NCBI GenBank assembly: GCA_965205505.1
Contig: CBDBHB010000009.1
Span: forward strand, 2,560,001-2,624,000
Source: Acidobacteriota bacterium
GTDB lineage: Bacteria > Acidobacteriota > UBA890 > WLXD01
Direction of reading: 5' to 3'
DNA length: 64,000 nt
Program-made: the position numbers and the translations under genes
In this document: piece after piece, positions 2,027 to 62,094 of the stretch
How the letters are laid out: each line of letters starts with the position of its first letter
How positions within the stretch are numbered: position 1 is the first letter of the stretch
Notes under the pieces: generated by a model
What the model was told of the DNA's origin: nothing
Database searches by the model: none
Seen by the model: the letters and a program-made list of their open reading frames with translations, nothing else

Positions 2027-4543
2027 GTGAGTGAGCTACCCAAGCACGCCAAGGTCGTTGTTGTCGGCGCCGGCATCGTCGGAAACAGCATGGCCTGGCA
2101 CCTGGCCCGACTGGGCTGGCGCGACATCGTGCAGATCGACAAGGGGCCGCTGCCCAATCCGGGTGGCTCGACCGGTCATGCGTCGAATTTCGTCTACCCG
2201 ATGGACCACTCCAAGGTGATGACGGAGATCACCGCCGACAGCACGTGCCAGTACGAAGATATGGGCGTGTTCCGCGAGAGCGGGGGCCTCGAGGTGGCGC
2301 GCGACGAGAAGCACCTGATCGAGCTCCGCCGCCGACTACAGTCGGCCAAGTGCTGGGGCGTCGAGGCCGAGCTTCTGACCCCCGATGAAACGCTCAAGCT
2401 GTTCCCGTGGATCGATCGGGACGTCATTCTGGGGTCGTACTGGAGCCCAACCGTCGGTGTCGTCGACTCGCTACGTGCCGGAACCATCATGCGGGAGCGT
2501 GCACAGGAGCTCGCGGCGTTGAGCGTGTTTCCCAGCACGGAGATCCTGGGCATCGATGTGGAGAACGGTAGGGTAAAGGGTGTGCGCACCTCGCGCGGTG
2601 ACATGACCGCCGAGTACGTTGTCGTTGCCTGCGGTGTGTGGAGCCCGCGCATTGCGGCAATGGCGGGCGCGACGATCCCGCTGACGCCGATCATCCACCA
2701 GATGATCGACGTCGGACCGATCGAGGCTTTCGAGGGTGCCGAGAGCGAGATCGAGTACCCGATCATCCGCGACATGAGCGTCTTCATGTATGAACGCCAG
2801 GCGGGGAACAACCTGGAGATCGGCTCGTACGCGCATCGGCCGATCATCCACGACGCGGATGACATCCCGTCCAACGACGAGGCGGCGCTGTCGCCCACCG
2901 AGATGCCGTTCACGGGCCAGGACTTCGATCCGCAGCTGGCTCATGCGATCGAGCTGCTACCGGAGCTACTGGATCGCGACGATGTCGAGATCCAGTACGC
3001 CATCAACGGGTTGCTATCGCTTACGCCTGACGGTGAGCCGGTGCTCGGTGAGACGGTCGAGGTGAAGAACCTCTGGTCGGCCGCCGCTGTCTGGATCAAG
3101 GAGGGACCTGGGGTCGGGCGCATGATCGCCGAATGGATGGTCGACGGCCAGCCGGAGATCGACCCCCACGAGCTCGACATTTCACGCCTCTACCCGTTCG
3201 CGCGCACGAACACGCATGTGGTGGCGCGAGCCTGTGAGAGCTTCAACAAGATCTACGGTGTGGTGCACCCGATGGAGCAGTGGGAGTCGTCGCGGCGAGT
3301 CCGCTGCAGCCCTTTCTACACTCAGCAAGAGTCCCAGGACGCGGTGTTTTACGAAACGGCGGGTTGGGAGCGCCCGCACTGGTACGACTCCAACCGAATC
3401 CTGCTCGAGGAGTACCAGGAGCGCATACCCGATCGCCCGAACGAATGGGACGCGCGTTGGTGGTCGCCGATCATCAATGCCGAGCACCTGGCGATGCGCG
3501 ATCGCGCCGCGATGGTCGATCTGTCGGCGCTGGCGATCTTCGACGTTTCCGGCCCGGGCGCTCTGAACTACGTTCAGAAGATGGCTGTAAACCAGATGGA
3601 CGTGGCGGTTGGCAGGGCCGTCTACACGCCACTGCTGCACCGCAACGGTGGCTTCAAGTCTGACCTGACCATCATGCGCACCGGTGCTGAGTCGTTTCGC
3701 GTGGTGTCTGGTGGTGCTGACGGAAGCCGGGACGAGAAGTGGCTCCGGGTCAACCTGCCGGACGACGGGTCGACGCACTTCGACAACCGCTCGTCGGCGC
3801 TTTGTACGCTGGGGCTCTGGGGGCCGCGCGCGCGCGACATCCTGCAATCGCTCACCCGCAACGACGTCTCGCACGAGGCCTTCCCGTTCGGCACCGCACA
3901 GCAGATCGTCCTCGATCGTGTGCCTGTATGGGCCCTGCGTATCTCCTATGTCGGCGAGCTCGGCTGGGAGCTATACATGCCGATGGAGAACGGGCGTTAC
4001 GTCTGGGATCTGCTGTCGGAAGCGGGGCGACCGAGTGGCCTGATTCCCGCAGGTATCGGCGTGTATGGCACCACCGGCCGGTTGGAGAAGGGGTACCGGC
4101 TGTTCGGCGCCGAGCTGGAGGGCGACACCAATCCGGTCGAGGCTGGTCTTGCACGCAAGACGGTCAAGGAGCAGGACTTCGTTGGCAAGGAGGCCTACGC
4201 GCAAGCGCTCGAGAGTGAGCCGGCGGCGATACTGTGCACCCTGACCGTCGACGACCACACATCGTCATCGGGCGAAGCGCGCTTCATGCTCGGTCGCGAG
4301 CCGGTGCTGACCAAGGATGGCAAGCGGATCGTCGATGCGCGCGGCCGTGGCTCATACACAACGAGCGCCGGCGCCGGGCCGTCGGTGGGGAAGTACCTGC
4401 TGATGGCGTATCTGCCTCCGGAGCACGCGCAAGAAGGTACCGAGCTACTGGTGGAGTACTTCGCCGAGCAGTATCCGGTGACGGTCGCCGTCGCAGGCAG
4501 CAAGCCGCTTTTCGATCCCGGCAACGAGCGCATGCGGAAATGA
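2027..4543 (+). CDS. Dimethylglycine/sarcosine oxidase-dehydrogenase (FAD-dependent DAO domain + GcvT aminomethyltransferase domain)
   Basis: VVVVGAGIVG Rossmann motif, GSTGHASNF, TPDGEP, GWERPHW, RISYVGELGWE; GAAGGAG RBS before GTG 2027. Confidence 0.9.
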   Translation: MSELPKHAKVVVVGAGIVGNSMAWHLARLGWRDIVQIDKGPLPNPGGSTGHASNFVYPMDHSKVMTEITADSTCQYEDMGVFRESGGLEVARDEKHLIELRRRLQSAKCWGVEAELLTPDETLKLFPWIDRDVILGSYWSPTVGVVDSLRAGTIMRERAQELAALSVFPSTEILGIDVENGRVKGVRTSRGDMTAEYVVVACGVWSPRIAAMAGATIPLTPIIHQMIDVGPIEAFEGAESEIEYPIIRDMSVFMYERQAGNNLEIGSYAHRPIIHDADDIPSNDEAALSPTEMPFTGQDFDPQLAHAIELLPELLDRDDVEIQYAINGLLSLTPDGEPVLGETVEVKNLWSAAAVWIKEGPGVGRMIAEWMVDGQPEIDPHELDISRLYPFARTNTHVVARACESFNKIYGVVHPMEQWESSRRVRCSPFYTQQESQDAVFYETAGWERPHWYDSNRILLEEYQERIPDRPNEWDARWWSPIINAEHLAMRDRAAMVDLSALAIFDVSGPGALNYVQKMAVNQMDVAVGRAVYTPLLHRNGGFKSDLTIMRTGAESFRVVSGGADGSRDEKWLRVNLPDDGSTHFDNRSSALCTLGLWGPRARDILQSLTRNDVSHEAFPFGTAQQIVLDRVPVWALRISYVGELGWELYMPMENGRYVWDLLSEAGRPSGLIPAGIGVYGTTGRLEKGYRLFGAELEGDTNPVEAGLARKTVKEQDFVGKEAYAQALESEPAAILCTLTVDDHTSSSGEARFMLGREPVLTKDGKRIVDARGRGSYTTSAGAGPSVGKYLLMAYLPPEHAQEGTELLVEYFAEQYPVTVAVAGSKPLFDPGNERMRK

Positions 4544-5307
4544 ACATCCTCGTTTGCGTCAAGCGTGTCCCGGACACGGGAGCCAAGCTGCGGCTCACCG
4601 AGGACGAGCGCGCCGTGGATACGAGGCGGCTGGGATTTACCATCAGCCCGCACGAGGAGTGCGCCGTAGAGGAAGCGGTGCAGATCATCGAGCGCGAGGG
4701 CGGCGAGGGCGTGGTGCTCACGCTCGGTCCAGGGGAGGCCGAAGAGCAGCTGCGCGACTCGATGGCCCGAGGCATGGATCGCGCCATCCTGTTGGAGATC
4801 GATGGCGAGGAGTGGGACCCGCAGCGCACCGCCGACGCCATCGTCGAATCGGTGCGCCGGGAGGCCGATGCCGGTCATCACTACGACTTGATCATGTTCG
4901 GCAACGAATCTGCCGACAGCGGGGACTTTCAGATCGGCATTCGGGTGGCCCATGCACTGGACCTACCTTGTGTTACCGGCGTCAAGGACATCGACATTCA
5001 CGGCGGTGCGCTGGAGGCACGGCGTGAGATCGCTGCTGGATGGGAGGTTTACGAAGTGCAGATGCCGGCCGTCCTCACCACCAAAGAGGGCCTGAACCTG
5101 CCGCGACATCCATCCTTGCGCGGCACGATGGGAGCCAAGAAGAAACCGCTCGATCGGAGCTCGCCATCGCACAGCGAGGGTGGCCTACGTCTGCAGCGCG
5201 TCGTCCACCCGCCGGATCAGGGAAAGGAAGTCGAGATCCTGGGTGAGGGGCCGGCGGCGGCACCGCGCATAGTCGAGCTGCTCGAAAAACTGGAGTTGCT
5301 CGGATGA
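4540..5307 (+). CDS. etfB: Electron transfer flavoprotein subunit beta
   Basis: MNILVCVKRVPD, AVEEAV, GNESADSGDFQ, LNLPR; ATGA overlap with the upstream gene. Confidence 0.92.
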   Translation: MNILVCVKRVPDTGAKLRLTEDERAVDTRRLGFTISPHEECAVEEAVQIIEREGGEGVVLTLGPGEAEEQLRDSMARGMDRAILLEIDGEEWDPQRTADAIVESVRREADAGHHYDLIMFGNESADSGDFQIGIRVAHALDLPCVTGVKDIDIHGGALEARREIAAGWEVYEVQMPAVLTTKEGLNLPRHPSLRGTMGAKKKPLDRSSPSHSEGGLRLQRVVHPPDQGKEVEILGEGPAAAPRIVELLEKLELLG

Positions 5308-39475: not shown

Positions 39476-40193
39476 GTGGCTGATCGGCCGGCACGCTGTC
39501 GTCGAGGCGCTCGCCGGATCGGCGCGTCGCGTGCATGAGGTCTGGACGCTTGCCGGCCGCCGCTCGGCGGCCATCGACGAGGTCCGCAACCGCGCCCAGG
39601 TGGCCGGTGTCGCGGTACGGGGAATCGAAGCTCGCGAGCTCGGTGGCGTGGCCCCTGGCGCGACCATAGCGGCGCGCTGCTCGGCCTTCCGGTATCGCGA
39701 CGAGGCCGACTTGCCAGCCGCCGCCCCGTCTGTCCCGTCGCTGGTCGTCGTGCTGGACGGCATACAGGATCCGCAGAACCTTGGCGCCATCGTTCGAACC
39801 GCCGAGGCGGCGGGTACCGTAGCACTTTGCATCCCGACTCGACGTGCCGCCCAGGTGACGCCGGCGGTCGTGCGCGCCTCGGCCGGGGCCACCGAGCACC
39901 TGCCGGTCCATCGGGTGACCAATATCGCGCAGGCTCTCGAGCACCTCAAGAGCCTCGGCTACTGGGTCGTCGGACTGGCCGCCTCTGGCGCTACACAGTG
40001 GGATCAGATCGACTATCAGAGGGCGGTGGCGCTGGTGGTGGGTGCCGAGGGTAGGGGACTGCGGCGCCTCGTAGCCGATCGTTGCGACCACTTGGTGACC
40101 CTGCCGATGCGTGGGCGTGTCCAATCGCTGAACGCTAGCGCGGCATTCGCCACTGTGGCATTCGAGGTGGTTCGCCAACAACAGGCCGGCTGA
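39468..40193 (+). CDS. rlmB: 23S rRNA Gm2251 2'-O-methyltransferase
   Basis: LDGIQDPQNLGAIVR, GAEGRG, SLNAS (SpoU family). Confidence 0.9.
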   Translation: MAEWLIGRHAVVEALAGSARRVHEVWTLAGRRSAAIDEVRNRAQVAGVAVRGIEARELGGVAPGATIAARCSAFRYRDEADLPAAAPSVPSLVVVLDGIQDPQNLGAIVRTAEAAGTVALCIPTRRAAQVTPAVVRASAGATEHLPVHRVTNIAQALEHLKSLGYWVVGLAASGATQWDQIDYQRAVALVVGAEGRGLRRLVADRCDHLVTLPMRGRVQSLNASAAFATVAFEVVRQQQAG

Positions 40194-40227
40194 TGCTCCA
40201 GATTGCGCCGAACCGGGGTCGGCAGGC

Positions 40228-40256
40228 TTGCCGGGTCTAGGAGCAGAACCTATAGT
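40228..40256 (+). promoter_or_regulatory. Sigma70-type promoter of the tRNA-Thr operon
   Basis: TTGCCG-17bp-TATAGT. Confidence 0.6.
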
Positions 40257-40335
40257 TCGCCTGCAAAGCAGCCCTCTGCCGCGCGCTTCCTTGGGCGCGG
40301 CCACACCGATCCAACTTGCCCAGGGTTGCCAGCGG

Positions 40336-40408
40336 GCTGGCGTAGCTCAGTTGGGAGAGCAGCTGATTTGTAATCAGCAGGTCGGAGGTTCGAGTCCTCT
40401 CGCCAGCT
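40336..40408 (+). tRNA. tRNA-Thr(TGT); integration site (attL)
   Basis: GCTGGCG/CGCCAGC acceptor stem, CTGAT-TTGTAA-TCAG anticodon arm, GGTTCGAGTCC. Confidence 0.95.
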
Positions 40409-41187
40409 CCTCGAAAGTCCCATGAGATCAATGGGTTATGGGATTATTCGGTATCCGCCTATCTCAAGAAAGATCATTCGGGGTCGTCCTGGGGGTCGGT
40501 ATCGGTCCGACTTGTGCTTCTCGACGCTCGAGCCGCTTCCCGCTGCCGCAGCTCCTGTCTCCGCCGCTCGTTCGCGACCCATGGCCGCGGTGGCAGAGAC
40601 GCACCCGCTCCTGGCCAACGACGTAGTCGACCAGGCGCATCGGAGCCTGGATTGTGGCGCCTGGTGAGGCGAATGAGACTTTGGTGGTTGCAGCTGCTCG
40701 AGTGCGCATGCGACACCCAGGCGCCGGAGCGTTGAGACCCCCTGCGGCGCCCGGTTCTAGCCTCTACAAGGCCCGTAGACGCGCATGGGTGCGGTGCAGG
40801 TAAGTAGCTGTCGAAAGCTCGACGCGCATGGGAGGCGCGCAACCGCGTACACGTAGAGTCACCGGCCCCCTCCAACGGCCCTACGTCGTCGCCTGTGCGT
40901 GCTGTGCATGGATCTCGAGGCGCTGACCTTGCCCATTTGCCCCATTTGCGCGCTCGAGGCTCGGCGGCCGTTAGAAACGATCTGTGGGCCTCGTAGGGGG
41001 CCGGCCTCCGAGATCACGCCGCGTAGCAGCCCGCTAGCAGCGTCTCGACACGAGATGACCCCGACCAGCAGCGCCTCGCCCGCGATGCGCCGGTTTGCTA
41101 TGCCGCTCGGTCACTCCCGCACGGTCTGGGGCTCGAATGTGGCATCATTTCCAGACTATCGAAGTAGATCACCTGCCGAGGTCCGGC

Positions 41188-41865
41188 GTGCTCGACGCTG
41201 AAAGTGTTTTCTGGTTCGCCAGTACCATCGCCCAGTGTGTGGTGGCGTTGTTAGCGTTCGCTGCGTTCGTGGCAGTGTGGCGGCTCGATTCCATCACAGA
41301 TTCTCGCAAGGGTACGGCTGAACGCTTGAAAGAAGACATACGGACCGCGCTGAGCCGCTACGCGACCACGGCACAGACGGTCTTGGCCTTCTTTGAGGCA
41401 CAGGGGAGAACCTTCCCGGAAGCCATCATCTGCGGTGATCTCGGGGGGATATGGCAGCAATCACATCGCAATTGGGCCACGCTACACGAAATCGGTCAGG
41501 TGCTTACAGCGCATCGTGACAAGCTATGCTGTTCCAGTCCCAGCGCCGCGATGGACGAGGCGTGGCTCGCCACGAACGGCATCACACGGTCACTTCTCGA
41601 CGATATCGAGAAGTACACGAAGCAGATTGCTCCGACAGTCAAATTGATCGGATCTTTGCGCCGTTGGCTCCGACTAGTTACCTGTTGCAGCTTGAGCACG
41701 ATAGCGCTGAGCCTGATCGTGATCGCTGGAACGAAGCTCCTCGTAGAACACCATCCGGCGCTCTACTTCGCGTTTCTTGTGCTAGCGACGGCAACAGCCG
41801 CAACGCTGCTGTCAGCGAGCCAGCTCGGTCGAGCCATCTTCCAACAGCCAGAAGCGTGGGAGTGA
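41188..41865 (+). CDS. Hypothetical membrane protein (1 N-terminal + 2 C-terminal TM helices), element cargo; start uncertain
   Basis: Long ORF with hydrophobic segments flanking a helical soluble region. Confidence 0.6.
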   Translation: MLDAESVFWFASTIAQCVVALLAFAAFVAVWRLDSITDSRKGTAERLKEDIRTALSRYATTAQTVLAFFEAQGRTFPEAIICGDLGGIWQQSHRNWATLHEIGQVLTAHRDKLCCSSPSAAMDEAWLATNGITRSLLDDIEKYTKQIAPTVKLIGSLRRWLRLVTCCSLSTIALSLIVIAGTKLLVEHHPALYFAFLVLATATAATLLSASQLGRAIFQQPEAWE

Positions 41866-42008
41866 CGCGCGGCGCCGTGCGCGTAGGAGGCGAGTCCAAA
41901 ACGCGGTGCACTATTCGCCCGAACGGCAGCAAGTAGCGCCGCGCAACGAACCATCCTCCTAGCGTGGTAGGGTCAGCGTCGCAACTCTCTCCACCAGGAG
42001 GCACCCTG

Positions 42009-42533
42009 ATGGGACGCCTAATTCTCTTCGCGGCCACTCTGTTTCTGTTGGCCGCGCCTGCCAGCGCCCAGCAACAAGACGATCGTATCCTGAAAGGGGT
42101 TGTGGACTGGAGCTCCCGAGTCGAGCATCGAGACGACGGACTGAGCATTCTGACTTACGACCTATCAGAATCATCGAGGAATCCACGTGCTAAGGAAGTA
42201 TTTACCTACATCGTCTTTACGTCGATAGACCCTCCTGGTCTAAGCCCAATCGTTACCTTAAATCTAACTCCTCCTGAATTCTCTCGGAACTACTACACTC
42301 TGGCGGTGGTGAACTTCGGAAACCGAACTGCTACCGGAAAAGTCACCCTGAAACTCACCGGTCCTACCAGATGGACTCGAACATTCCGAAACGCGACGGT
42401 GCCGGGTCCTGGCTACGCGGTGTTCTATTTCCAGGGACAACCGCTGAATCGAATAGGGAACTACCTTCTCAAGGGATCGTTCACGCGTGCAGGGTCGATG
42501 AAGTCTCGCTTCTGCGCTGGATGCCTCCGCTAG
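42009..42533 (+). CDS. Hypothetical secreted beta-rich protein, element cargo
   Basis: AGGAG RBS, signal peptide ending ASA-Q, visibly lower GC. Confidence 0.7.
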   Translation: MGRLILFAATLFLLAAPASAQQQDDRILKGVVDWSSRVEHRDDGLSILTYDLSESSRNPRAKEVFTYIVFTSIDPPGLSPIVTLNLTPPEFSRNYYTLAVVNFGNRTATGKVTLKLTGPTRWTRTFRNATVPGPGYAVFYFQGQPLNRIGNYLLKGSFTRAGSMKSRFCAGCLR

Positions 42534-42939
42534 AGCCCGGCGCTGACAATGACCGGGGCTTGCGGGCGGGAGCCCCTTTCCCCGAGTCAAACTGAGACAC
42601 TACCCAAGTTCGCGCCGTTTCCGTCGCTTGGCGCCCCGGGCTACGGCTGTCATCAACGGCCAGGCGTGTCCCCGCTGCGGATTCCGGGCGCTCTCGCCAG
42701 GTCCTCGAGGGCCTTCCGAGCCTCCGACAGCGTAATCACGGCCTCACGCAGATGAGCGTCGACTAGGCCGTCGGTGAACCACTCACTGTCGCCCGCGTGC
42801 GAAGCAGGCGGCCACAGGTCTTGCTGACGACAACGCCGAAGTGTCGCTGTTTCAATGCGTCGATAAGGCGGCAAGCTGTGCGGGTCGTTCAACGATTCAG
42901 GCATCCCACCTCTGTGGACAGCACTTCGGCTTGCTCCAG

Positions 42940-43194
42940 CACTGCGCAGGGTGTCGTTACCGAGCACATGGACGGCGCTGTCATTGGTCTCCAGCGCATC
43001 GTAGAAGGCCAGCTCATCCTTGGATAGCCTCAGATCTTCACCGCGGGCACTTGCCTCACGCATCTCCGGGGGTCAACTGGATCAGCTCCGTGATCACCTG
43101 TGCGGTCTCAATGGCTCCGCCCGACAAACAGGAAAGGGCGGCGCAGGCCGTGCTCCAGCAAGCGGTGGTGCTGTCCGTCGGCTGGGCGGCGTGA
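42940..43194. pseudogene. Two back-to-back fragments of a type I restriction HsdR C-terminal region
   Basis: Minus strand: [45 protein letters not shown]; plus strand from 43117: PPDKQERAAQAVLQQAVVLSVGWAA*. Confidence 0.8.
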
Positions 43195-43274
43195 CACCAG
43201 ATCTGGGGCCGCAGTTGGCGATACGACGCACTGGCCTGCGTCTACGAGGCACGTGCCCCCCGTGCCCCGGTCCT

Positions 43275-44240
43275 TCAGCGTCTCGCCCCGGTCCGCGGCA
43301 GCGCGGCGGAGATCGCCACGAGCTTCGTCCGCACCGCGGCCGCATGCCCGCTCCACTCCGCTATCACTTCGTCCTTCGCCACGAGCTCACCGCCCCACAC
43401 CTTGAGCGTCTGCTCCGCAAGGTGTCGCTGCGCCCGCTCCTTTAGCGCCCTCTCCCCCACCGCGTCCAGGAACTCGGCAGGCTGCGCAGTCTCGTCGCGC
43501 TCCGATACCCACGCCTCGACGTCTTCGAGCCGGTAGCCATGTGGCCGACCGACCGACCCACGACGCGCCACCGGCATCCCGGCGTCTACCATCTTGGAAA
43601 TCCCTTTCACGCTCCGGCCCAACGCCGCCGACAGCTCCGCACGGCCTAGCAGCTTCTCGACTCCCAGGATCTCGTCGGTGTGCGCGCGACCCAGGAACGA
43701 GCCGCCCTCGAAAGCTTCGCCCGGCTTTTGGAGTTTCCACAACTCTTCCACAGCCGCGAGGTATTCCCCGGGAAGGTCACCACCGGCAAAGAGCGTGAAG
43801 TTCTCGAGGTGCTTGTTCGCGTTCAGGTTCGCCGACGTCGTGTAGAGCACGTCCAGCTTCCCGCCCAGCACGAGGACGAATTTCGCGTGCGAGTTCCACA
43901 CCCGGAGCGCCTGGTCGCCGAATAGGTGGCGCGCGCGGCCACAGTATCGCGGCTGCCTCGATTCGAAGGAACGGTCAACGAGTAGACGGAGAGGCTTGAT
44001 CCGCCCGTCCTGTAGCAGCCGCTCCGCCCGCTCAATGTCGGCGTTCGCCGCCGTCCAGGTCGACACCGTGACGTCGCTCGGGCCGCACCGCTCGAGCAGC
44101 TCTTCTATAGCGTCGATCAGCGACCAAGTCCCATCGGAGAGGCCATGGATCGAGCAACCGTCCGCGAGCCCTTCGAACGCCTCCGAGGGTCCTTTGCTGT
44201 TGCGACCGACCCACGCCGAGCGCTCCTGACCTTCAGGCAC
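43275..44240 (-). CDS. Fusion of a PLD-like nuclease domain and a lambda Nu1-like small terminase (wHTH + coiled coil)
   Basis: HAKF...TSANLN; LGRAELSAALGRSVKGISKMVDAGMPVARRGSVGRPHGYRLEDVEAW resembles the gpNu1 N-terminus. Confidence 0.72.
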   Translation of the reverse strand: MPEGQERSAWVGRNSKGPSEAFEGLADGCSIHGLSDGTWSLIDAIEELLERCGPSDVTVSTWTAANADIERAERLLQDGRIKPLRLLVDRSFESRQPRYCGRARHLFGDQALRVWNSHAKFVLVLGGKLDVLYTTSANLNANKHLENFTLFAGGDLPGEYLAAVEELWKLQKPGEAFEGGSFLGRAHTDEILGVEKLLGRAELSAALGRSVKGISKMVDAGMPVARRGSVGRPHGYRLEDVEAWVSERDETAQPAEFLDAVGERALKERAQRHLAEQTLKVWGGELVAKDEVIAEWSGHAAAVRTKLVAISAALPRTGARR

Positions 44241-44264
44241 CCCAACCCCCCCCTAGGGCCGCAC

Positions 44265-44325
44265 AAAAAATTAACGAGATTCTGCGCCGTCCACTCCCGT
44301 TAGCGATGACCTCGGCGAAGAACCT
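44265..44325 (-). other. Putative lambda-like cos site (cosQ-cosN-AT-rich tract)
   Basis: Minus strand AGGTTCT-18bp-ACGGGAGTGGACGGCGCAGAATCTCGTTAATTTTTT immediately upstream of the terS-like gene. Confidence 0.55.
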
Positions 44326-44381
44326 ATAGGCACCCCCACCCCCTGCCGGTGGCCGCGCTCGAAGCGATCGCCGCCGCTTGA

Positions 44382-45476
44382 TCACGATGTCACCGGCCGA
44401 CGGTGCTCGTAGCCGTCGTGGCGAGTCTCGGCGTAGGGATCTTCCAGGTCCGCGAACTCCTGCAAGAACCGCTGGCCGGATTCGTCCAGGTCGGCGAGCG
44501 GTACAAGGTCGCCAACGGTCTTGACGTCCTCGCCGCCGAGTTGGTCTTTCCAGTGGTCAGGCTTCGGCCTCGGCTTCGGTGGCTCGATCACCGTTGAACG
44601 TTGCTCATCGGTGGACGTCGTTGCCGGCGTTGCCGGTGGTCGTGCTGGCTCGCTCGCTTGCTCCGCTCTCATCTCTGCATGTGCCTCGGCGAGCGCTTGG
44701 TCGAGGTCGACAGGCTTGCCCCTTACCCCGCCGCTTTTTGCGGCTGTCGGTGGTGGTGAGTCACCCGGATGTGGCGGTTCCTCTCCGATGGGCCCGCCGC
44801 TCGATTTCCACGGATCGGCGCCCAAATCGCCGCCGGCCTCCTTGTCTCTCTCAGGCGCCCCGACGGACGGCGGCGGCGGAGCCTCCAGCGCAGCCGCAGC
44901 CGCGGCCGGTTTCCTCTGTTCAATGAAGGGGGGGGCGCTGTAGGCGCCCCCCTTCTCAGTTACTTGGACAGTTAGGGGGCCTGTGAGTCCGGGTTGAATG
45001 GACTGTGAGTCCGGGTTGGAGCACTTTTTGGACTGTGTGGCCGGGTTGGACTTGGGGCCAGTCCCTCCACCGCGTAGCAGCCAATACGTATTCGAGCGGC
45101 GCCCGTGGCTGCGGCCGGTGAGTAGCTTCCCCTTCCGTTCTAGCTCGCGAATCCCGCGCCGGATTGTCCGCGCCGAAACTCGCGCTTTGGCTGCCATTAA
45201 CTCGACGGACGGAAACGATTTGCCGGTGCCTTGGCTCGCGTGGCGCAGCAGCATAAATTCCACAAACTTCGCGCGCCATGAGGTCTCGTCGTCGTCGCAG
45301 ATTTCCGCCAAGGCTGTCAGCGCCATAAATCCCCTCTTCGGCTCTGGCGTTTCCGGTGGCTTCGATGCCATCGCCATCGGGTCACCGAGCACCACGGCGG
45401 CGGTGCCGCCTGCCCTTTCAAGAACGTCGCGCGGAGCGGCACGCTCCACTGGCGCCAGCGTCGCGGACCTAGACAT
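44382..45476 (-). CDS. HTH-domain replication initiator-like protein
   Basis: SFPSVELMAAKARVSARTIRRGIRELERKG...RSNTYWL wHTH; internal iteron-like repeats. Confidence 0.72.
   Translation of the reverse strand: MSRSATLAPVERAAPRDVLERAGGTAAVVLGDPMAMASKPPETPEPKRGFMALTALAEICDDDETSWRAKFVEFMLLRHASQGTGKSFPSVELMAAKARVSARTIRRGIRELERKGKLLTGRSHGRRSNTYWLLRGGGTGPKSNPATQSKKCSNPDSQSIQPGLTGPLTVQVTEKGGAYSAPPFIEQRKPAAAAAALEAPPPPSVGAPERDKEAGGDLGADPWKSSGGPIGEEPPHPGDSPPPTAAKSGGVRGKPVDLDQALAEAHAEMRAEQASEPARPPATPATTSTDEQRSTVIEPPKPRPKPDHWKDQLGGEDVKTVGDLVPLADLDESGQRFLQEFADLEDPYAETRHDGYEHRRPVTS
44981..45050. repeat. Three iteron-like direct repeats CTGTGwGkCCGGGTTG-type (putative origin)
   Basis: Copies start at 44981, 45003 and 45033; adjacent GC hairpin at ~44925-44955. 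Confidence 0.75.
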
Positions 45477-45732
45477 GACGCTCCGCCCAGGCTTTCGGAT
45501 TCGCCCACCACTCAAGTACTTCGGCGGCGTCGTAGAGTTTGCGCCCGCCAACTTCTCGGGGCTCCGGAAACTTCCCATTGCGGCGCAGGCGCCATCTGGT
45601 CTTACGACTCAGGAGTCCCAGGCGATCGAGATCCCGCTCGCTCCACGCGAGTTGTCCAAGCAACTCGTCGGCGTTGCTCGCCTGCTCAGGCTGCTGGCGC
45701 GGCTTACTTACCACGGATCGCTGACGTTTCAC
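45469..45732 (-). CDS. AlpA-like HTH transcriptional regulator
   Basis: LSRKTRWRLRRNGKFPEPREVGGRKLYDAAEVLEW. Confidence 0.75.
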   Translation of the reverse strand: MKRQRSVVSKPRQQPEQASNADELLGQLAWSERDLDRLGLLSRKTRWRLRRNGKFPEPREVGGRKLYDAAEVLEWWANPKAWAERHV

Positions 45733-45736
45733 CGCC

Positions 45737-45946
45737 CTACTCCCGGATTCCGCCGGTGACGCTACTGCGTCGGCTATCTATCAGGCGCTCGAGATCCGAT
45801 CGTCTGATGAGGCGGACACCGGACGGCGTCCGAGTCGCGCGAAGCTTTCCGCAGTTGGTCCACAGCCGGACTGTCGCCGGAGTTACGCCCGCGAGCCGAG
45901 CGGCTTCCGCTGGAAGTAGGACGGGGTCGTTCGATGCTTCTTTCAT
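45737..45946 (-). CDS. Excisionase-like / MerR-type HTH DNA-binding protein
   Basis: PAEAARLAGVTPATVRLW...GKLRATRTPSGVRLIRRSDLE. Confidence 0.8.
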   Translation of the reverse strand: MKEASNDPVLLPAEAARLAGVTPATVRLWTNCGKLRATRTPSGVRLIRRSDLERLIDSRRSSVTGGIRE

Positions 45947-46054
45947 TTAGCTAGGCATTCTGCCAGCCTGGCTTGTGTGGTGCAACATATAACATATAGA
46001 ATTACGTTTAAACGATTGGCGCGGAAATCGAGCCCTTTGTCTGTGAGGAGAGAG

Positions 46055-46777
46055 ATGCCGAAGCGAACTCCATCAATCAGCCCCGAGATCAGGGCCGGCC
46101 TTGCCCGGCACAAGGCAGAGAAAGCGAATCCGGCGTATCAGGAGTGGCTCTCGAAGCTGAAGGCAGCATCGAAGCGAATCGGCGACACTGCTGCCGCTCG
46201 GCTCACGTGGCTGTGCGCGTTCGCGCGAGAGAATCTGGAAACGGCCGATCGGGTCGAGCTCGGAGAGTGCTTAGTCGCCTTCGGCCACGGCGGGTTCCCA
46301 GCGTTCCTCGTCGGCGGCGTCGATTTGCCACCCCCACTCGCCGACGAAGATCTCGATCGGCTCCATAAGGAGGTCCGCGGGCTGTTGAGGAAGCTTGTCG
46401 GTGAGCCGGCGGGCCAGGCGGTCGAGGTGCCCTTTGTCGAAGGAGCACGACCGCATCTCGTTCGCGCGACGAATGTCGGTGACCAGCCGGCCATCTTCGG
46501 GCTGACCTGGAGCCAACAAACCGTCTATAGCGCCGTCTTCACGGAACTCCTCGAAATCGTGAACCGCCACGGAGACCGCTTGCGCGCGTGCGACGAATGC
46601 GGGGGTCCGTTCGTAAGGATCCGGCGCCAACAATACTGCTCGCGGGCGTGCTCACAGCGCCGCCGGTCCGCTAGGTGGTACGAGCGGCATGGGGAGGAAG
46701 CCCGCCAACGAAGGAAGGACGACTACCAAAGGAAGGTCGCTCCGGCCAGGGTCAGGCGCCGCAAGAGGGGAGGCTAA
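46055..46777 (+). CDS. CGNR-type zinc finger protein
   Basis: RLRACDECGGPFVRIRRQQYCSRAC followed by a basic tail; GAGGAG RBS. Confidence 0.7.
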   Translation: MPKRTPSISPEIRAGLARHKAEKANPAYQEWLSKLKAASKRIGDTAAARLTWLCAFARENLETADRVELGECLVAFGHGGFPAFLVGGVDLPPPLADEDLDRLHKEVRGLLRKLVGEPAGQAVEVPFVEGARPHLVRATNVGDQPAIFGLTWSQQTVYSAVFTELLEIVNRHGDRLRACDECGGPFVRIRRQQYCSRACSQRRRSARWYERHGEEARQRRKDDYQRKVAPARVRRRKRGG

Positions 46778-46786
46778 GTGAGACAG

Positions 46787-48076
46787 CTACGCAAGCGCGG
46801 TCTCCCGCCCGAGCGCCACCACCTTGCCTGCGGTCGCCGGGTCGAGCGCAGCGACGTGCTGACCCCATAATTGGAGCGCCTCGCGCTTTTCGCCGAGCAA
46901 ATCATATGCGGTGTAATGCACCGCTGTCGTGCCCACCGGCGCATGCCCGGCGATCGCCGAGACGACGCTGCCAGGGGTCTTGCAGATGCGCTTGAGGCCG
47001 TCGAGGACCGTGCCTCGCAGATCTCGAATCCACCATTCTTCACCGAGGTCAGCAGCGTCGCGAACGCGCTGGTAGGCGTCCCGGTAGTTCGTGAAGGCCA
47101 AGCCGTCGCGAGTCGGCGACGGGAACATGAAGCCGCTGCGATCCTCGAAGGCGTGCAGCTCGGATAGGACTGCGCGCGGTTGCGACGAAAGCGGTATCAG
47201 GTGATGCTCCGGCGCGTGACGCGAGCGTCGCAGCTTCGTTCGGGCCTTGGGAATACCCCACACCCCGTCGCCATCAGTATCGACTTCATGCCACGCGCCC
47301 TCGAAGACCTCCATGGGGCGAAGGCCGGTGAGTGCCAGTAACCGAAAGCCGAGCCCGGCAAGGCCACCTTCTCTCCGGAAAAGGGGCAGGAGAGTCCGGA
47401 GCTCCTCGTCGGCCAAGATCCGCTTTCGCGGCTTCTCGAGGGCCGGATCCTGGAGGCGAGCCGCCGGATTCCCCGTGAGGCCAGGCTCGTCGCGGTCGAG
47501 GCCCCACGTGTAGATACGGGACAGCAGCGCCGCGGTTCGATTCCGGGCGGTATAGGCACCGCGGTCCTCGTACTCGTCGAGCAGCTCGACGATGTCACGC
47601 TTCCGGATCTCGCCCGCCGGCCGATCACCCCACCGGCCGATCAGGACCTTCTCGACGAGGTTTTCTTCTGCCCGAGCCGACTTTGCGACCTTCCTTACCT
47701 TCGCGTACCGAGCGATGTACTCACGCGCGAGTTGCTTGAACGTGACGGCCTCTCGCGCCTCCCGTCGCTCGGCGGCCGGATCGAGCCCGATGCGGACATC
47801 CTGCAGGACCTTCTTGGCGCGCTTACGCGCCTCGGCCAGCGATATTCGCTCCGGGTCCGTCGCGCCCGGTCCTTTCCTCGGTGAGTCCTCAGTGAGTCCC
47901 AGCGTTACCCGCGGGCGCTTCCCGCCCTTCCAGTAGGAAACGGTGAAGGTCTTCCGCCCGGAAGGGCTCACGCGAAGGATCAATCCGGGCACCTCGATGT
48001 CGTGATAATCTGTGCGCCCTGCCTTCGGCACCGATAAGCTTTTGATCCCTTGCGCGGTCAACTTCGTCTTCGGCAT
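46787..48076 (-). CDS. Tyrosine integrase with an N-terminal arm-binding domain (P4-like)
   Basis: PGLILRVSPSGRKTF arm domain; LTGLRP (R), IRDLRGT, AGH...HY catalytic residues. Confidence 0.93.
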   Translation of the reverse strand: MPKTKLTAQGIKSLSVPKAGRTDYHDIEVPGLILRVSPSGRKTFTVSYWKGGKRPRVTLGLTEDSPRKGPGATDPERISLAEARKRAKKVLQDVRIGLDPAAERREAREAVTFKQLAREYIARYAKVRKVAKSARAEENLVEKVLIGRWGDRPAGEIRKRDIVELLDEYEDRGAYTARNRTAALLSRIYTWGLDRDEPGLTGNPAARLQDPALEKPRKRILADEELRTLLPLFRREGGLAGLGFRLLALTGLRPMEVFEGAWHEVDTDGDGVWGIPKARTKLRRSRHAPEHHLIPLSSQPRAVLSELHAFEDRSGFMFPSPTRDGLAFTNYRDAYQRVRDAADLGEEWWIRDLRGTVLDGLKRICKTPGSVVSAIAGHAPVGTTAVHYTAYDLLGEKREALQLWGQHVAALDPATAGKVVALGRETALA

Positions 48077-48118
48077 ATGCTTCTCGGGGTCAGTTCGGGG
48101 TCGGTAGTCAGCCGCCAC

Positions 48119-48147
48119 TTGCTGACACAATCCGACCCCAGTATACT
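48119..48147 (+). promoter_or_regulatory. Outward-facing sigma70-type promoter in the element's right arm
   Basis: TTGCTG-17bp-TATACT. Confidence 0.5.
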
Positions 48148-48283
48148 CGCTAATACGCCTTAGCTATAGGGTATTAGCCATTTCATGCAGGGTCACGGAG
48201 TGGCGTTCGGGGGCAATATTTGATGATTTGTAATCAGCAGGTCGGAGGTTCGAATCCGCCCGCCAGCTCTGGTTGTACCTAGA

Positions 48284-48366
48284 GGAGAGTTGCCCGAGCG
48301 GCCAAAGGGAGCAGACTGTAAATCTGCCGGCTAATGCCTACGGAGGTTCGAATCCTCCACTCTCCA
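48284..48366 (+). tRNA. tRNA-Tyr(GTA)
   Basis: GGAGAGT/ACTCTCC stem, GCAGA-CTGTAAA-TCTGC, long variable arm. Confidence 0.95.
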
Positions 48367-48585
48367 CCTTCGTCTCTTGGCGCCTGAGTCACCAGCCGGC
48401 CGCCATCCGGCACCACCGCGACGACCTGTTGGTGGCCGGCGCCAGCGTCGGCACCAGGCCCGGCGTCCGCCTGTTCGACTACACTGGCAGCCGGCTTCTC
48501 GACCTCGAGGTCCTCTCCGCCGGCGTCCAGTAACTTCTGGCCGTACGGGTGCGGTTGCTCGAGCGCTGGCCTCCGCGCCCCCGAC

Positions 48586-48614
48586 TTGGCGCCTGTGTTG
48601 AGGGGTGATAGCAT
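48586..48614 (+). promoter_or_regulatory. Sigma70-type promoter upstream of tRNA-Gly/Thr-tuf
   Basis: TTGGCG-17bp-TAGCAT with extended -10 TG. Confidence 0.45.
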
Positions 48615-48658
48615 ACCCGTTCTCGCACAGGAGAACTCTGTGCACACCACGGTACGAG

Positions 48659-48732
48659 GCGGGAATAGCTCAATCTGGTAGAGCGCCAGCCTTCCAAGCT
48701 GGGGGTTGCGGGTTCGAGTCCCGTTTCCCGCT
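48659..48732 (+). tRNA. tRNA-Gly(TCC)
   Basis: GCGGGAA/TTCCCGC stem, CCAGC-CTTCCAA-GCTGG. Confidence 0.95.
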
Positions 48733-48813
48733 CTGTGCGCGGCGTCGGGGCGAATCGGCTGGCCATCCACACGGGACACACCGACGCGATAGCCACGTTT
48801 TGCTTTCGGGAGG

Positions 48814-48888
48814 GCCCACGTGGCTCAGTGGTAGAGCGCTTCCTTGGTAAGGAAGAGGTCACCGGTTCAATCCCGGTCGTGGGCTCCA
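48814..48888 (+). tRNA. tRNA-Thr(GGT)
   Basis: GCCCACG/CGTGGGC stem, TTCCT-TGGTA-AGGAA, encoded CCA. Confidence 0.95.
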
Positions 48889-48953
48889 CCAGTTTGATCG
48901 AAACACATGCGGCAACCGAACAGCGTGCCTGAACTACGTCAGAGGAGAATCTG

Positions 48954-50147
48954 ATGGCGAAGGAGAAATTCGAACGGACGAAGCCGCATGTAAACGTGGG
49001 GACGATTGGGCACGTGGACCACGGCAAGACGACGTTGACGCAGGCGATCACGCTGATTTTGTCGAAGTTGGGACGAGCGGACTACACGCCGTTCGATGAG
49101 ATCGACAAGGCGCCCGAGGAGAGAGAGCGAGGGATCACGATCGCGATAGCGCACGTTGAGTACGAGTCGGAGACAAGGCATTACGCGCACGTGGACTGCC
49201 CAGGGCACGCGGATTACATCAAGAACATGATCACGGGTGCGGCGCAGATGGACGGAGCGATCTTGGTGGTGTCGGCGGCAGATGGGCCGATGCCGCAGAC
49301 GCGGGAGCACATATTGCTGGCAAGGCAGGTGGGAGTGCCGGCGATGGTGGTGTTTCTGAACAAGGTCGACATGGTGGACGACGAGGAGCTGCTGGAGCTG
49401 GTGGAGCTGGAGGTACGGGAGCTGCTGTCGACGTATGAGTTTCCAGGGGACGATCTTCCGGTGGTAAAGGGATCGGCGCTGCAGGCGGCGGAGTCGGGAG
49501 ATCCGGAGTCGGAGGCCGGCAAGCAGATTCTCGAGTTGGTGGAAGCGCTTGACAGCTATATACCGGAGCCGAAGCGAGCGCTGGACCAGGCTTTCATGAT
49601 GGCGATCGAGGACGTGTTCACGATCTCTGGACGAGGCACGGTGGTAACGGGCCGAATCGACCGGGGAGTGGTGAAGACGGGAGAAGAGGTGGAGATCGTC
49701 GGGATTCGCGAGACGCAGAAGAAGGTGGTGACGGGAGTAGAGATGTTCCGGAAGATTCTCGATGAGGGTCAAGCCGGAGACAACGTGGGCGTGTTGTTGA
49801 GGGGAACGGACCGAGATGATGTGGAGCGGGGGCAGGTGCTGGCGAAGCCAGGAACGATCAAGCCGCACACGAGGTTTTCGGCCGAGGTGTATGTGTTGAC
49901 CAAGGATGAGGGAGGTCGACATACGCCGTTCTTCAAGGGATACCGGCCGCAGTTTTATTTCAGGACGACGGATGTGACCGGCTCGGTAGAGTTGCCCGAA
50001 GGCGTGGAGATGGTGATGCCCGGGGACAACGTGACGATCGCCGGAGATTTGATCACACCGATCGCGATGGAGAAGGGTCTGCGGTTTGCTATCCGCGAGG
50101 GCGGACGAACGGTGGGCGCTGGCACGATCACTGATATCCACGAGTAG
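48954..50147 (+). CDS. tuf: Elongation factor Tu
   Basis: [29 protein letters not shown]. Confidence 0.99.
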
Positions 50148-50154
50148 ATACGAG

Positions 50155-50228
50155 AGGGCAGTAGCTCTAATTGGCAGAGCACCGGACTCCAAATCCGGGG
50201 GTTGTGGGTTCGAATCCCTCCTGCCCTG
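50155..50228 (+). tRNA. tRNA-Trp(CCA)
   Basis: AGGGCAG/CTGCCCT stem, CCGGA-CTCCAAA-TCCGG. Confidence 0.95.
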
Positions 50229-50264
50229 CCTCTTGAACGCGACGAGGCGGTAGAAGTAGCGGGC

Positions 50265-57894: not shown

Positions 57895-62094
<4,200 letters not shown>

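Follow-up and report, generated by a model that had tools for sequence, protein, structure and literature searches.

The gene described here lies on the reverse strand (positions 43275..44240) of a 64,000-nt stretch of Acidobacteriota DNA, which we refer to as the window. It is a single open reading frame (ORF) of 321 amino acids with a GTG start codon, and its product joins an N-terminal PLD-type nuclease domain through a linker to a C-terminal Nu1-type small terminase whose C-terminus is shortened. In free phages, the PLD nuclease and the Nu1-type small terminase are separate genes of one packaging module, and usually they are adjacent. We consider the chances about even that the fusion ORF encodes the packaging-specificity protein of an element that resembles phage satellites, particularly the phage-inducible chromosomal islands (PICIs), and that this protein brings a terminase-coupled nuclease with it.

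An initial annotation had placed a PLD-like and a Nu1-like domain in this one ORF, and both assignments have held up in profile and fold searches (PHROGs, Foldseek, and a profile of the small-terminase domain). Among the PHROGs families, residues 19-176 match phrog_16945, labeled “endonuclease” (E = 3.9e-31), and residues 196-314 match the small-terminase family phrog_57 (E = 2e-14). The C-terminal half is also matched by phrog_141, more weakly than by phrog_57. In a Pfam scan of the ORF, the sole match is to HTH_17 (E = 0.042), which falls under the cut-off and backs neither domain call. An NCBIfam scan returned nothing, and a PADLOC scan yielded just a weak helix-turn-helix (HTH) match to mad1. 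The two domain calls are made because of the PHROGs matches, the fold comparison, and the domain profile, and not from curated Pfam families.

The N-terminal half (residues ~7-178; positions 43707..44222, reverse strand) adopts the fold of the PLD superfamily in an AlphaFold2 model of the fusion protein that was built on an alignment of 86 sequences (mean pLDDT 90.2, pTM 0.72). When this model was compared with the PDB by Foldseek (probability 1.00 for the domain), 18 matches were obtained at E ≤ 0.001, and among the matches listed all are PLD-superfamily chains. They include SauUSI (E = 5.7e-5), the NgoAVII R protein, Zucchini, Nuc (1byr), PLD3/PLD4, polyphosphate kinase, and phosphatidylserine synthase. 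NucT (6ehi) comes next in the ranking (E = 5.2e-3). Nuc, Zucchini, and NucT, which are small nucleases of a single domain, give target-normalized TM-scores of 0.54-0.60.

Residues of catalytic type are conserved in this domain. Positions that are at least 90% conserved among the 86 aligned sequences are G37, W62, D89, S91, R95, G108, H118, K120, F121, S136, N138, L139, N142, an Arg at position 144, and E146, and four of these (H118, K120, S136, and N138) are invariant in the 17 closer sequences. The putative catalytic motif H118-x-K120...S136-x-N138...N142...E146 is encoded at positions 43803..43889 of the reverse strand. The HAK...S.N signature without its usual Asp, to which the initial annotation had drawn attention, is found as H118-A-K120...S136-A-N138. 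In the classical PLD motif, an Asp stands at +5 after the Lys, and the spacing from Lys to Asn is 15. The fold, the HxK element, and the downstream Ser/Thr-x-Asn are thus all present in the window’s protein, the Asp position (125) is occupied by Leu, and K120 and N138 are 18 residues apart.

The same fold and an H-x-K...S-x-N...N...E arrangement are found in single-motif nucleases of the PLD superfamily, namely Nuc (1byr), NucT (6ehi), Zucchini (4ggj, 4gel), and the nuclease domains of NgoAVII (4rct) and SauUSI (7clg). Unlike these proteins, the domain described here lacks the motif Asp, has its spacing lengthened by three, and is tethered to a terminase subunit, and it has no detectable sequence similarity to them. 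PLD enzymes must pair two motifs to form one active site, and their chemistry needs no metal ion.

The C-terminal half begins with a Nu1-type winged HTH (residues ~197-250; positions 43491..43652, reverse strand), which was recognized by the profile of the domain and for which the model has helices at residues 200-207, 211-219, and 238-249. Two long helices follow (residues 254-282 and 289-313; positions 43302..43481, reverse strand) that phrog_57 and the model identify as the counterpart of the small-terminase region for self-association. Up to phrog_57 position 142 these helices align with the family, and they would serve the same purpose in the fusion protein.

When the single sequence was searched against the PDB with HMMER, three lambda gpNu1 entries were among the top four matches with E-values near 0.04 (0.036), aligned through the GMPV wing. 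A profile of nine sequences of the small-terminase domain gave 6hn7_B at 6.7e-8, 1j9i at 1.3e-7, and 7lw0 at 5.5e-6. The resemblance to lambda gpNu1 reported in the initial annotation, including the GMPV wing and ...V..W..ERD, is therefore visible in the HMMER alignments to 1j9i and 6hn7 and becomes significant with the domain profile. The Pfam families Phage_Nu1 and DUF1441 have no match to the window’s protein at E ≤ 0.1, and the relative P0071 scores 26.5 bits versus a Pfam Nu1-type cut-off of 35.1.

Lambda gpNu1 (1j9i, 6hn7_B, and 7lw0; phrog_57) shares with the window’s protein the winged HTH, its GMPV wing, and the long helices that follow, and a gpA-type large-terminase fragment stands after a sister copy of the fusion gene, as described below. 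In contrast to gpNu1, the window’s protein has an N-terminal PLD domain of 195 amino acids, is without the C-terminal tail, and is encoded without an adjacent large-terminase gene (terL).

The nuclease domain belongs to a widespread family. An exhaustive search over 1.84 billion representative proteins recovered 1298 relatives at E ≤ 0.001, including 685 at E ≤ 1e-10. Relatives were found at 55 loci in IMG/VR. We scanned the next three same-strand ORFs downstream at 45 of these, having dropped eight near-duplicates, one locus without an ORF, and one without downstream sequence. A large terminase is encoded within this distance in 30 of the 45 loci, and four more have a small terminase only (34/45). 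The partners belong to several families, namely phrog_83, phrog_34561, phrog_57, phrog_141, and phrog_309 for the small terminase and phrog_9, phrog_15, phrog_2, and phrog_19179 for the large terminase. The upstream side was inspected in 32 loci. There, a terminase gene is present at L010, L012, and L035, whose downstream sides have no terminase or were unscanned, and L049 has an extra small-terminase match on that side.

Metagenomic loci have the same gene order. Hidden Markov models (HMMs) built from the terminase ORFs of the viral loci identify a terminase gene beside the PLD gene in 64 of 80 metagenome loci, and PHROGs adds one more (65/80). Nine of the 15 remaining loci have <500 nt of downstream sequence, and in seven metagenome loci a small-terminase match lies on the opposite strand. 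In 19 of the 55 viral loci, the PLD gene starts within ~250 nt of a contig end. Among isolated phages, 57 GenBank records carry a family member (Arthrobacter 37, Gordonia 16, Microcystis 2, Corynebacterium 1, and unclassified 1), which is annotated as “NucT-like nuclease” or “endonuclease.” Gene 1 of Gordonia phage Brylie is a family member, and after it come three small genes, the small-terminase gene (terS), terL, and the portal gene.

Since this nuclease family is an ordinary component of phage packaging modules, it most likely serves packaging itself. The initial annotation had proposed that a satellite could employ the nuclease as a weapon against helper-phage DNA. This proposal lost ground because phages carry the nuclease in their own packaging modules, upstream of terS and terL.

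Two further features of these loci were recorded. The stretch that separates the PLD gene from the terminase genes repeatedly contains a DNA methyltransferase (L041, L046, L052, L053, L014, and L031), which in one case is fused to a ParB-like domain. One of the two closest stand-alone metagenome relatives (51% identical; L085, positions 2600-4558) lies near a contig end with no terminase within 5 kb, and it is followed by a 652-aa transposase match (phrog_310), which could mean that the source is a transposable phage.

The initial annotation had conceded that its proposal would fail if homologs of the two halves were always two separate genes. Separate genes are indeed the usual condition, in that ~95 of 108 matches in an indexed search cover the N-terminal domain alone and are ~185-250 aa long, but they are not the only one, because fusions recur in different architectures. 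Homologs that span both domains include the relatives P0001, P0002, P0003, and P0007, with identities down to 70%, as well as two additional copies in the window’s own genome. An HMM census of 236 retrieved proteins detected the PLD domain in 232; the Nu1-type profile matches 15 of the proteins as well, and five have a tandem pair of PLD domains.

Additional partners emerged when 29 long relatives, the close relatives P0001 and P0007 included, were scanned with PHROGs. Eight of the 29 contain phrog_57, three contain an HTH_23/phrog_645 domain, and one contains a large terminase. This last protein, P0134 (1080 aa, from a metagenome), consists of two tandem PLD domains and a complete large terminase with both its ATPase and nuclease parts (phrog_9). 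Tandem forms of this kind may be read as fitting an active site that requires two PLD motifs. In P0145 and P0126, only 30-40 residues separate the PLD domain from the helical region of a small terminase, which comes directly afterward (hhalign probabilities of 95% and 97%). If these two proteins have an HTH, it would be located N-terminal of the PLD domain, at a weak match (iE 0.086). Because this order differs from the order of PLD domain, winged HTH, and helices in the window’s protein, the fusion arose more than once.

The fusion gene is carried by an element of 7.9 kb at a tRNA-Thr(TGT) gene, bounded by 46-nt direct repeats that are 93% identical and are separated by 7860 nt from start to start. 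The left attachment (att) repeat, located by the repeat search and the tRNA call (40364..40409, forward strand), is the 3' half of the tRNA gene (40336-40410), and the right repeat lies at 48224..48269 on the same strand. Beside the right repeat is a tyrosine integrase gene (46787..48130, reverse strand) whose product has arm-binding, central, and catalytic domains by Pfam and PHROGs. A leftward operon contains, in order, a MerR/HTH_17-type small regulator or excisionase (45737..45946), an AlpA/HTH_17-like small regulator or excisionase (45469..45732), a replication-initiator-like gene with HTH_36 and phage replication-initiation PHROGs matches (44382..45578), the fusion gene, and an ORF of 136 aa, all on the reverse strand. 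The two small regulators were assigned with Pfam and PHROGs; the HTH_17/MerR match has an E-value of 4.9e-9, and the replication-initiation match 1.2e-7.

The element also holds two further cargo ORFs without a family. A scan of nine element ORFs with Pfam and PHROGs gave no match to capsid, tail, portal, large-terminase, or lysis families. The element therefore has the gene set expected of a PICI-like satellite, with an integrase and att site, an alpA/merR-type regulator and replication module, and no structural or lysis genes. The satellite-type setting that the initial annotation had assumed is thus borne out by an integrase and att repeats. PICIs are laid out with int, an alpA/merR regulator, replication genes, and sometimes terS (PMC6092414). 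Like those PICIs and SaPIs that have their own TerS or Rpp proteins that redirect the small terminase, the element is a small island with an integrase, regulators of the alpA/merR type, replication genes, and a gene of terS type, and it is devoid of virion genes. It departs from them in that its host belongs to the Acidobacteriota and its terS is fused to a nuclease.

Two more full copies of the fusion gene reside in the same genome, with 91% and 82% identity and open frames of 398 and 402 aa, together with one fragment. Both full copies adjoin an integrase gene, the element at L065 has a replication-initiator-like gene as well, and the fragment has an integrase and a primase nearby. After the 82% copy comes the 183-aa fragment of a gpA-type large terminase mentioned above (phrog_15, E = 1.7e-52). 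Among 61 genomes, comprising the window’s own and 60 relatives, five have a match, and the full fusion occurs only in the window’s genome and in that of one other member of its genus. An assembly labeled as Acidobacteriota (L001) carries an intact copy that adjoins an integrase and a primase/helicase. A 407-aa ORF without a family match on contig C7 of the window’s genome (L066, 6420-7643, reverse strand) holds a 53-residue piece of the fusion linker that is 92% identical. This ORF adjoins a primase and is near an integrase, and it may belong to another rearranged element.

Both halves of the fusion are under purifying selection. In comparisons with three relatives (dS 0.5-0.9), the PLD half has a ratio of nonsynonymous to synonymous change (dN/dS) of 0.057-0.073, and the small-terminase half has one of 0.14-0.26. 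Because the constraint extends over both halves, the fusion as such has been maintained.

DNA-level likeness between the elements is limited to the fusion gene and the ~100 nt upstream of it. This conserved noncoding block (44241..44350, reverse strand), which was defined by comparing the copies, extends up to the start codon and is common to all four copies compared. It has a T-rich core within GC-rich surroundings, and a 22-nt direct repeat with a spacing of 93 nt occurs at 44229-44250, where it overlaps the start codon, and at 44322-44343. The block is a candidate terminase-binding (cosB/pac-like) region or, alternatively, a candidate promoter/operator region. It accompanies the gene from copy to copy, as would be expected of either. 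In the window’s genome it is found at the three gene copies only, and therefore no cos site of a helper could be named.

A mechanism can be proposed in which the Nu1-type winged helix would bind repeated sites in this ~100-bp block upstream of its own gene and the long helices would oligomerize the fusion protein. Pairing within the oligomer would join two PLD domains into one HxK...N...E active site. This site would then cut or trim DNA at or near the packaging start, acting with the lambda-gpA-type large terminase of a helper phage, and the fusion would hold the nuclease at the site recognized by the terminase. Nuclease activity, dimerization, the DNA target, and helper dependence are in each case what we infer for this protein.

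Several observations weigh against a packaging role for the fusion protein, and some of these concern the nuclease family at large. The N-terminal domain has no sequence-level match to Pfam or to any solved structure, and a profile of the domain searched against the PDB retrieved noise alone (CheY, E = 0.16). In the 37 Arthrobacter phage records, the homolog is not beside a terminase. In Arthrobacter phage Andrew, the one inspected, it adjoins the gene for a single-stranded DNA-binding protein, 3.6 kb from the right end of the genome, a placement that counts against a universal packaging role for the family. Furthermore, an HNH endonuclease gene occurs upstream in four of the 32 loci, and so the PLD gene is not simply a replacement for HNH.

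The placement in phage Andrew, among early genes, would be expected if the family instead acted in DNA metabolism, host-DNA degradation, or anti-defense at the boundary between early and terminase genes, with the fusions being accidents of adjacency. The presence of DNA methyltransferase, HNH, and ParB-like genes in the same neighborhood suits such a role, and Nuc and NucT are nonspecific nucleases. We nevertheless regard this alternative as unlikely. Accidents of adjacency do not readily match fusions with three different partners, in at least two domain orders and in one instance with a large terminase, nor the strong purifying selection on the PLD half within the fusion. Moreover, several minimal elements have retained the fusion although, apart from the integrase and the genes for replication, nothing else in them is phage-like.

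Other observations that weigh against a packaging role concern the window’s copy. Of the 199 positions in the phrog_57 profile, its match extends only to position 142, whereas that of P0001 reaches position 181. A tail of ~70 aa (56-73 residues), consisting of a conserved helix and then a Lys/Arg-rich end, is kept in P0001, P0002, P0007, P0046, P0071, and the copies in L065 and L001. The window’s protein ends at residue 321 and lacks this tail, and with it the segment expected to bind the large terminase, a loss that the initial annotation had missed. The C-terminus of lambda gpNu1 binds gpA. Recruitment of a large terminase is therefore doubtful for the window’s copy, which, by this analogy, may be unable to accomplish it. 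There is also no terL within the element, and an intact large terminase was not found in the genome, which is 96% complete; TerL_ATPase has no match there, and GpA_ATPase matches three times, in each case partially and in two cases with stops inside the match.

In place of the tail, the window has a different segment (42605..43390, reverse strand), as judged from comparison with the second element of the genome. The window copy and the 91% copy have the same replaced tail. The segment contains the 136-aa ORF (42653-43063, reverse strand). Over its first 40 residues, this ORF matches type I restriction R subunits in their C-terminal domain, and its versions in the two elements differ by three residues. 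A sliding comparison indicates that the replacing segment, at ~43150-42610, is ~99% identical to that of the second element, and the gene bodies are ~85% identical. From this difference in identity, the replacement probably is recent, in which case the dN/dS figures given above do not apply to the short form. We had considered that selection has preserved the short form from the time when the two elements diverged, but this idea was dropped because the replacing segment is ~99% identical between them. As a side observation, contigs from public sequencing runs have a summed depth of 292-925 in the bin 42810-43110 versus at most 20 in neighboring bins, which suggests that the replacing segment is a widely shared or multi-copy sequence.

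These features invite the interpretation that the window’s copy is a decayed remnant in a defective satellite or cryptic island, having lost its tail by recombination and no longer working in packaging. The tail has been swapped for unrelated sequence that contains in-frame stops when compared with the sister copy, the swap looks recent, and no intact large terminase was found in the genome. Position 144 of the window’s copy is also unusual in being His, since Arg is present there in at least 90% of relatives. Another relative, in a second assembly labeled as Acidobacteriota (L002, 7570-9049), is split into two frames and flanked by transposases, with three transposase ORFs upstream. Other evidence speaks for a functional gene. 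The frame of the window’s copy is undamaged for 313 residues, with a dN/dS of 0.06-0.16 versus the sister copy with the same truncation. All the catalytic-type residues are kept except at position 144, and the integrase, att repeats, and regulators look intact. On balance, we judge decay to be somewhat unlikely.

The short form could also have been put to another use. A tail-less small terminase might still bind cos or pac and co-oligomerize without being able to recruit the large terminase, thereby tethering the nuclease at the packaging site of the helper or at its own and blocking or cutting helper DNA. Satellites are known to disturb the packaging of their helpers by means of proteins that target the small terminase (PICIs; PMC6092414), and the structure 6hn7 is, by its title, a lambda-type small terminase with the PICI protein RppC. 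Two copies in the window’s genome have the tail-less form. Still, such interference seems distinctly unlikely to us. The family is mainly a phage gene inside packaging modules, the long, tail-bearing form is commoner among close relatives, no helper phage is known, and nothing links the truncation to selection.

If the fusion protein does serve packaging, the conclusion might extend beyond this element. PLD nucleases of this family may be an unrecognized, widespread third component of phage terminases, with a role like that of the HNH proteins of HK97-type phages but a different, PLD-type catalytic chemistry. They would be built into TerS or TerL in some lineages, and satellites would carry the fused form, with one gene for both recognition of the site and the cut at their own packaging site. 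We offer this broader view tentatively, as a possibility that is well short of probable. Kala et al. reportedly found in 2014 that the HNH endonuclease gp74 is associated with the HK97-type terminase. The PLD gene resembles the gene for gp74 in being a small nuclease gene beside terS and terL at the end of the genome, and joint work with the terminase is what we propose for it here. The two proteins differ in having unrelated folds and chemistry, and the HNH and PLD genes co-occur in the four loci mentioned above.

To our knowledge, small terminases have been regarded as DNA-recognition subunits without catalytic activity. The cutting of DNA is assigned to the large terminase, with the help of an HNH protein in some phages. 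The presence of a PLD domain beside terminases in most contigs examined, together with the fusions, suggests an extra, unstudied enzymatic step in or at packaging. Database annotations are all that is known of the nuclease family, and our literature search, which did not extend to supplementary files, found no paper on this PLD family with terminases or on the “NucT-like” genes. The “NucT-like nucleases” of Arthrobacter and Gordonia phages are 32-39% identical over 72-84% of the N-terminal domain. Unlike the fusion, they are stand-alone proteins of ~217-244 aa, and they are known by annotation only. A packaging role is directly testable in these culturable Gordonia and Arthrobacter phages. The element described here extends terS-carrying satellite-like elements to the Acidobacteriota, and the fusion gene provides a single-gene marker for finding such elements.

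The remaining features concern the element and its surroundings. Next to the integrase gene, a divergent ORF of 266 aa (45977..46777, forward strand) has no clear family and is a possible regulator, with a weak phrog_1271 match at its Cys-rich C-terminus; it occupies the place where the master regulator of a satellite would be expected. No sigma-70-like site was found in 43000-46100, and the one terminator-like site there is under the shuffle mean.

Parts of the window occur in 20 listed entries of public sequencing runs, with no RNA run among them. Contigs from four public sequencing runs were compared with positions 39800-48800 as an excision check, and no clear excision joint was seen in them. 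Joints of high depth between tRNA-Thr and tRNA-Tyr have 27-39 other letters between the two sides and match only in the tRNA parts, and therefore they come from other organisms. One joint of low depth (3.7 and 6.8, with sides of 31-37) is too weak to be called an empty site. The element splits what is otherwise an ordinary cluster (40336-40410 and 48284-50230) of tRNA-Thr, tRNA-Tyr, tRNA-Gly, tRNA-Thr, a 397-aa ORF, and tRNA-Trp, in which the 397-aa ORF is, by its look, presumably EF-Tu.

A tblastn match at 60904-61032 (E = 0.003-0.004) was considered as a second homolog in the window and was rejected. It falls inside a 1399-aa ORF that comes after a 1371-aa ORF, both of which we take, by size and position, to be RNA polymerase subunit genes, and the match is taken as chance.

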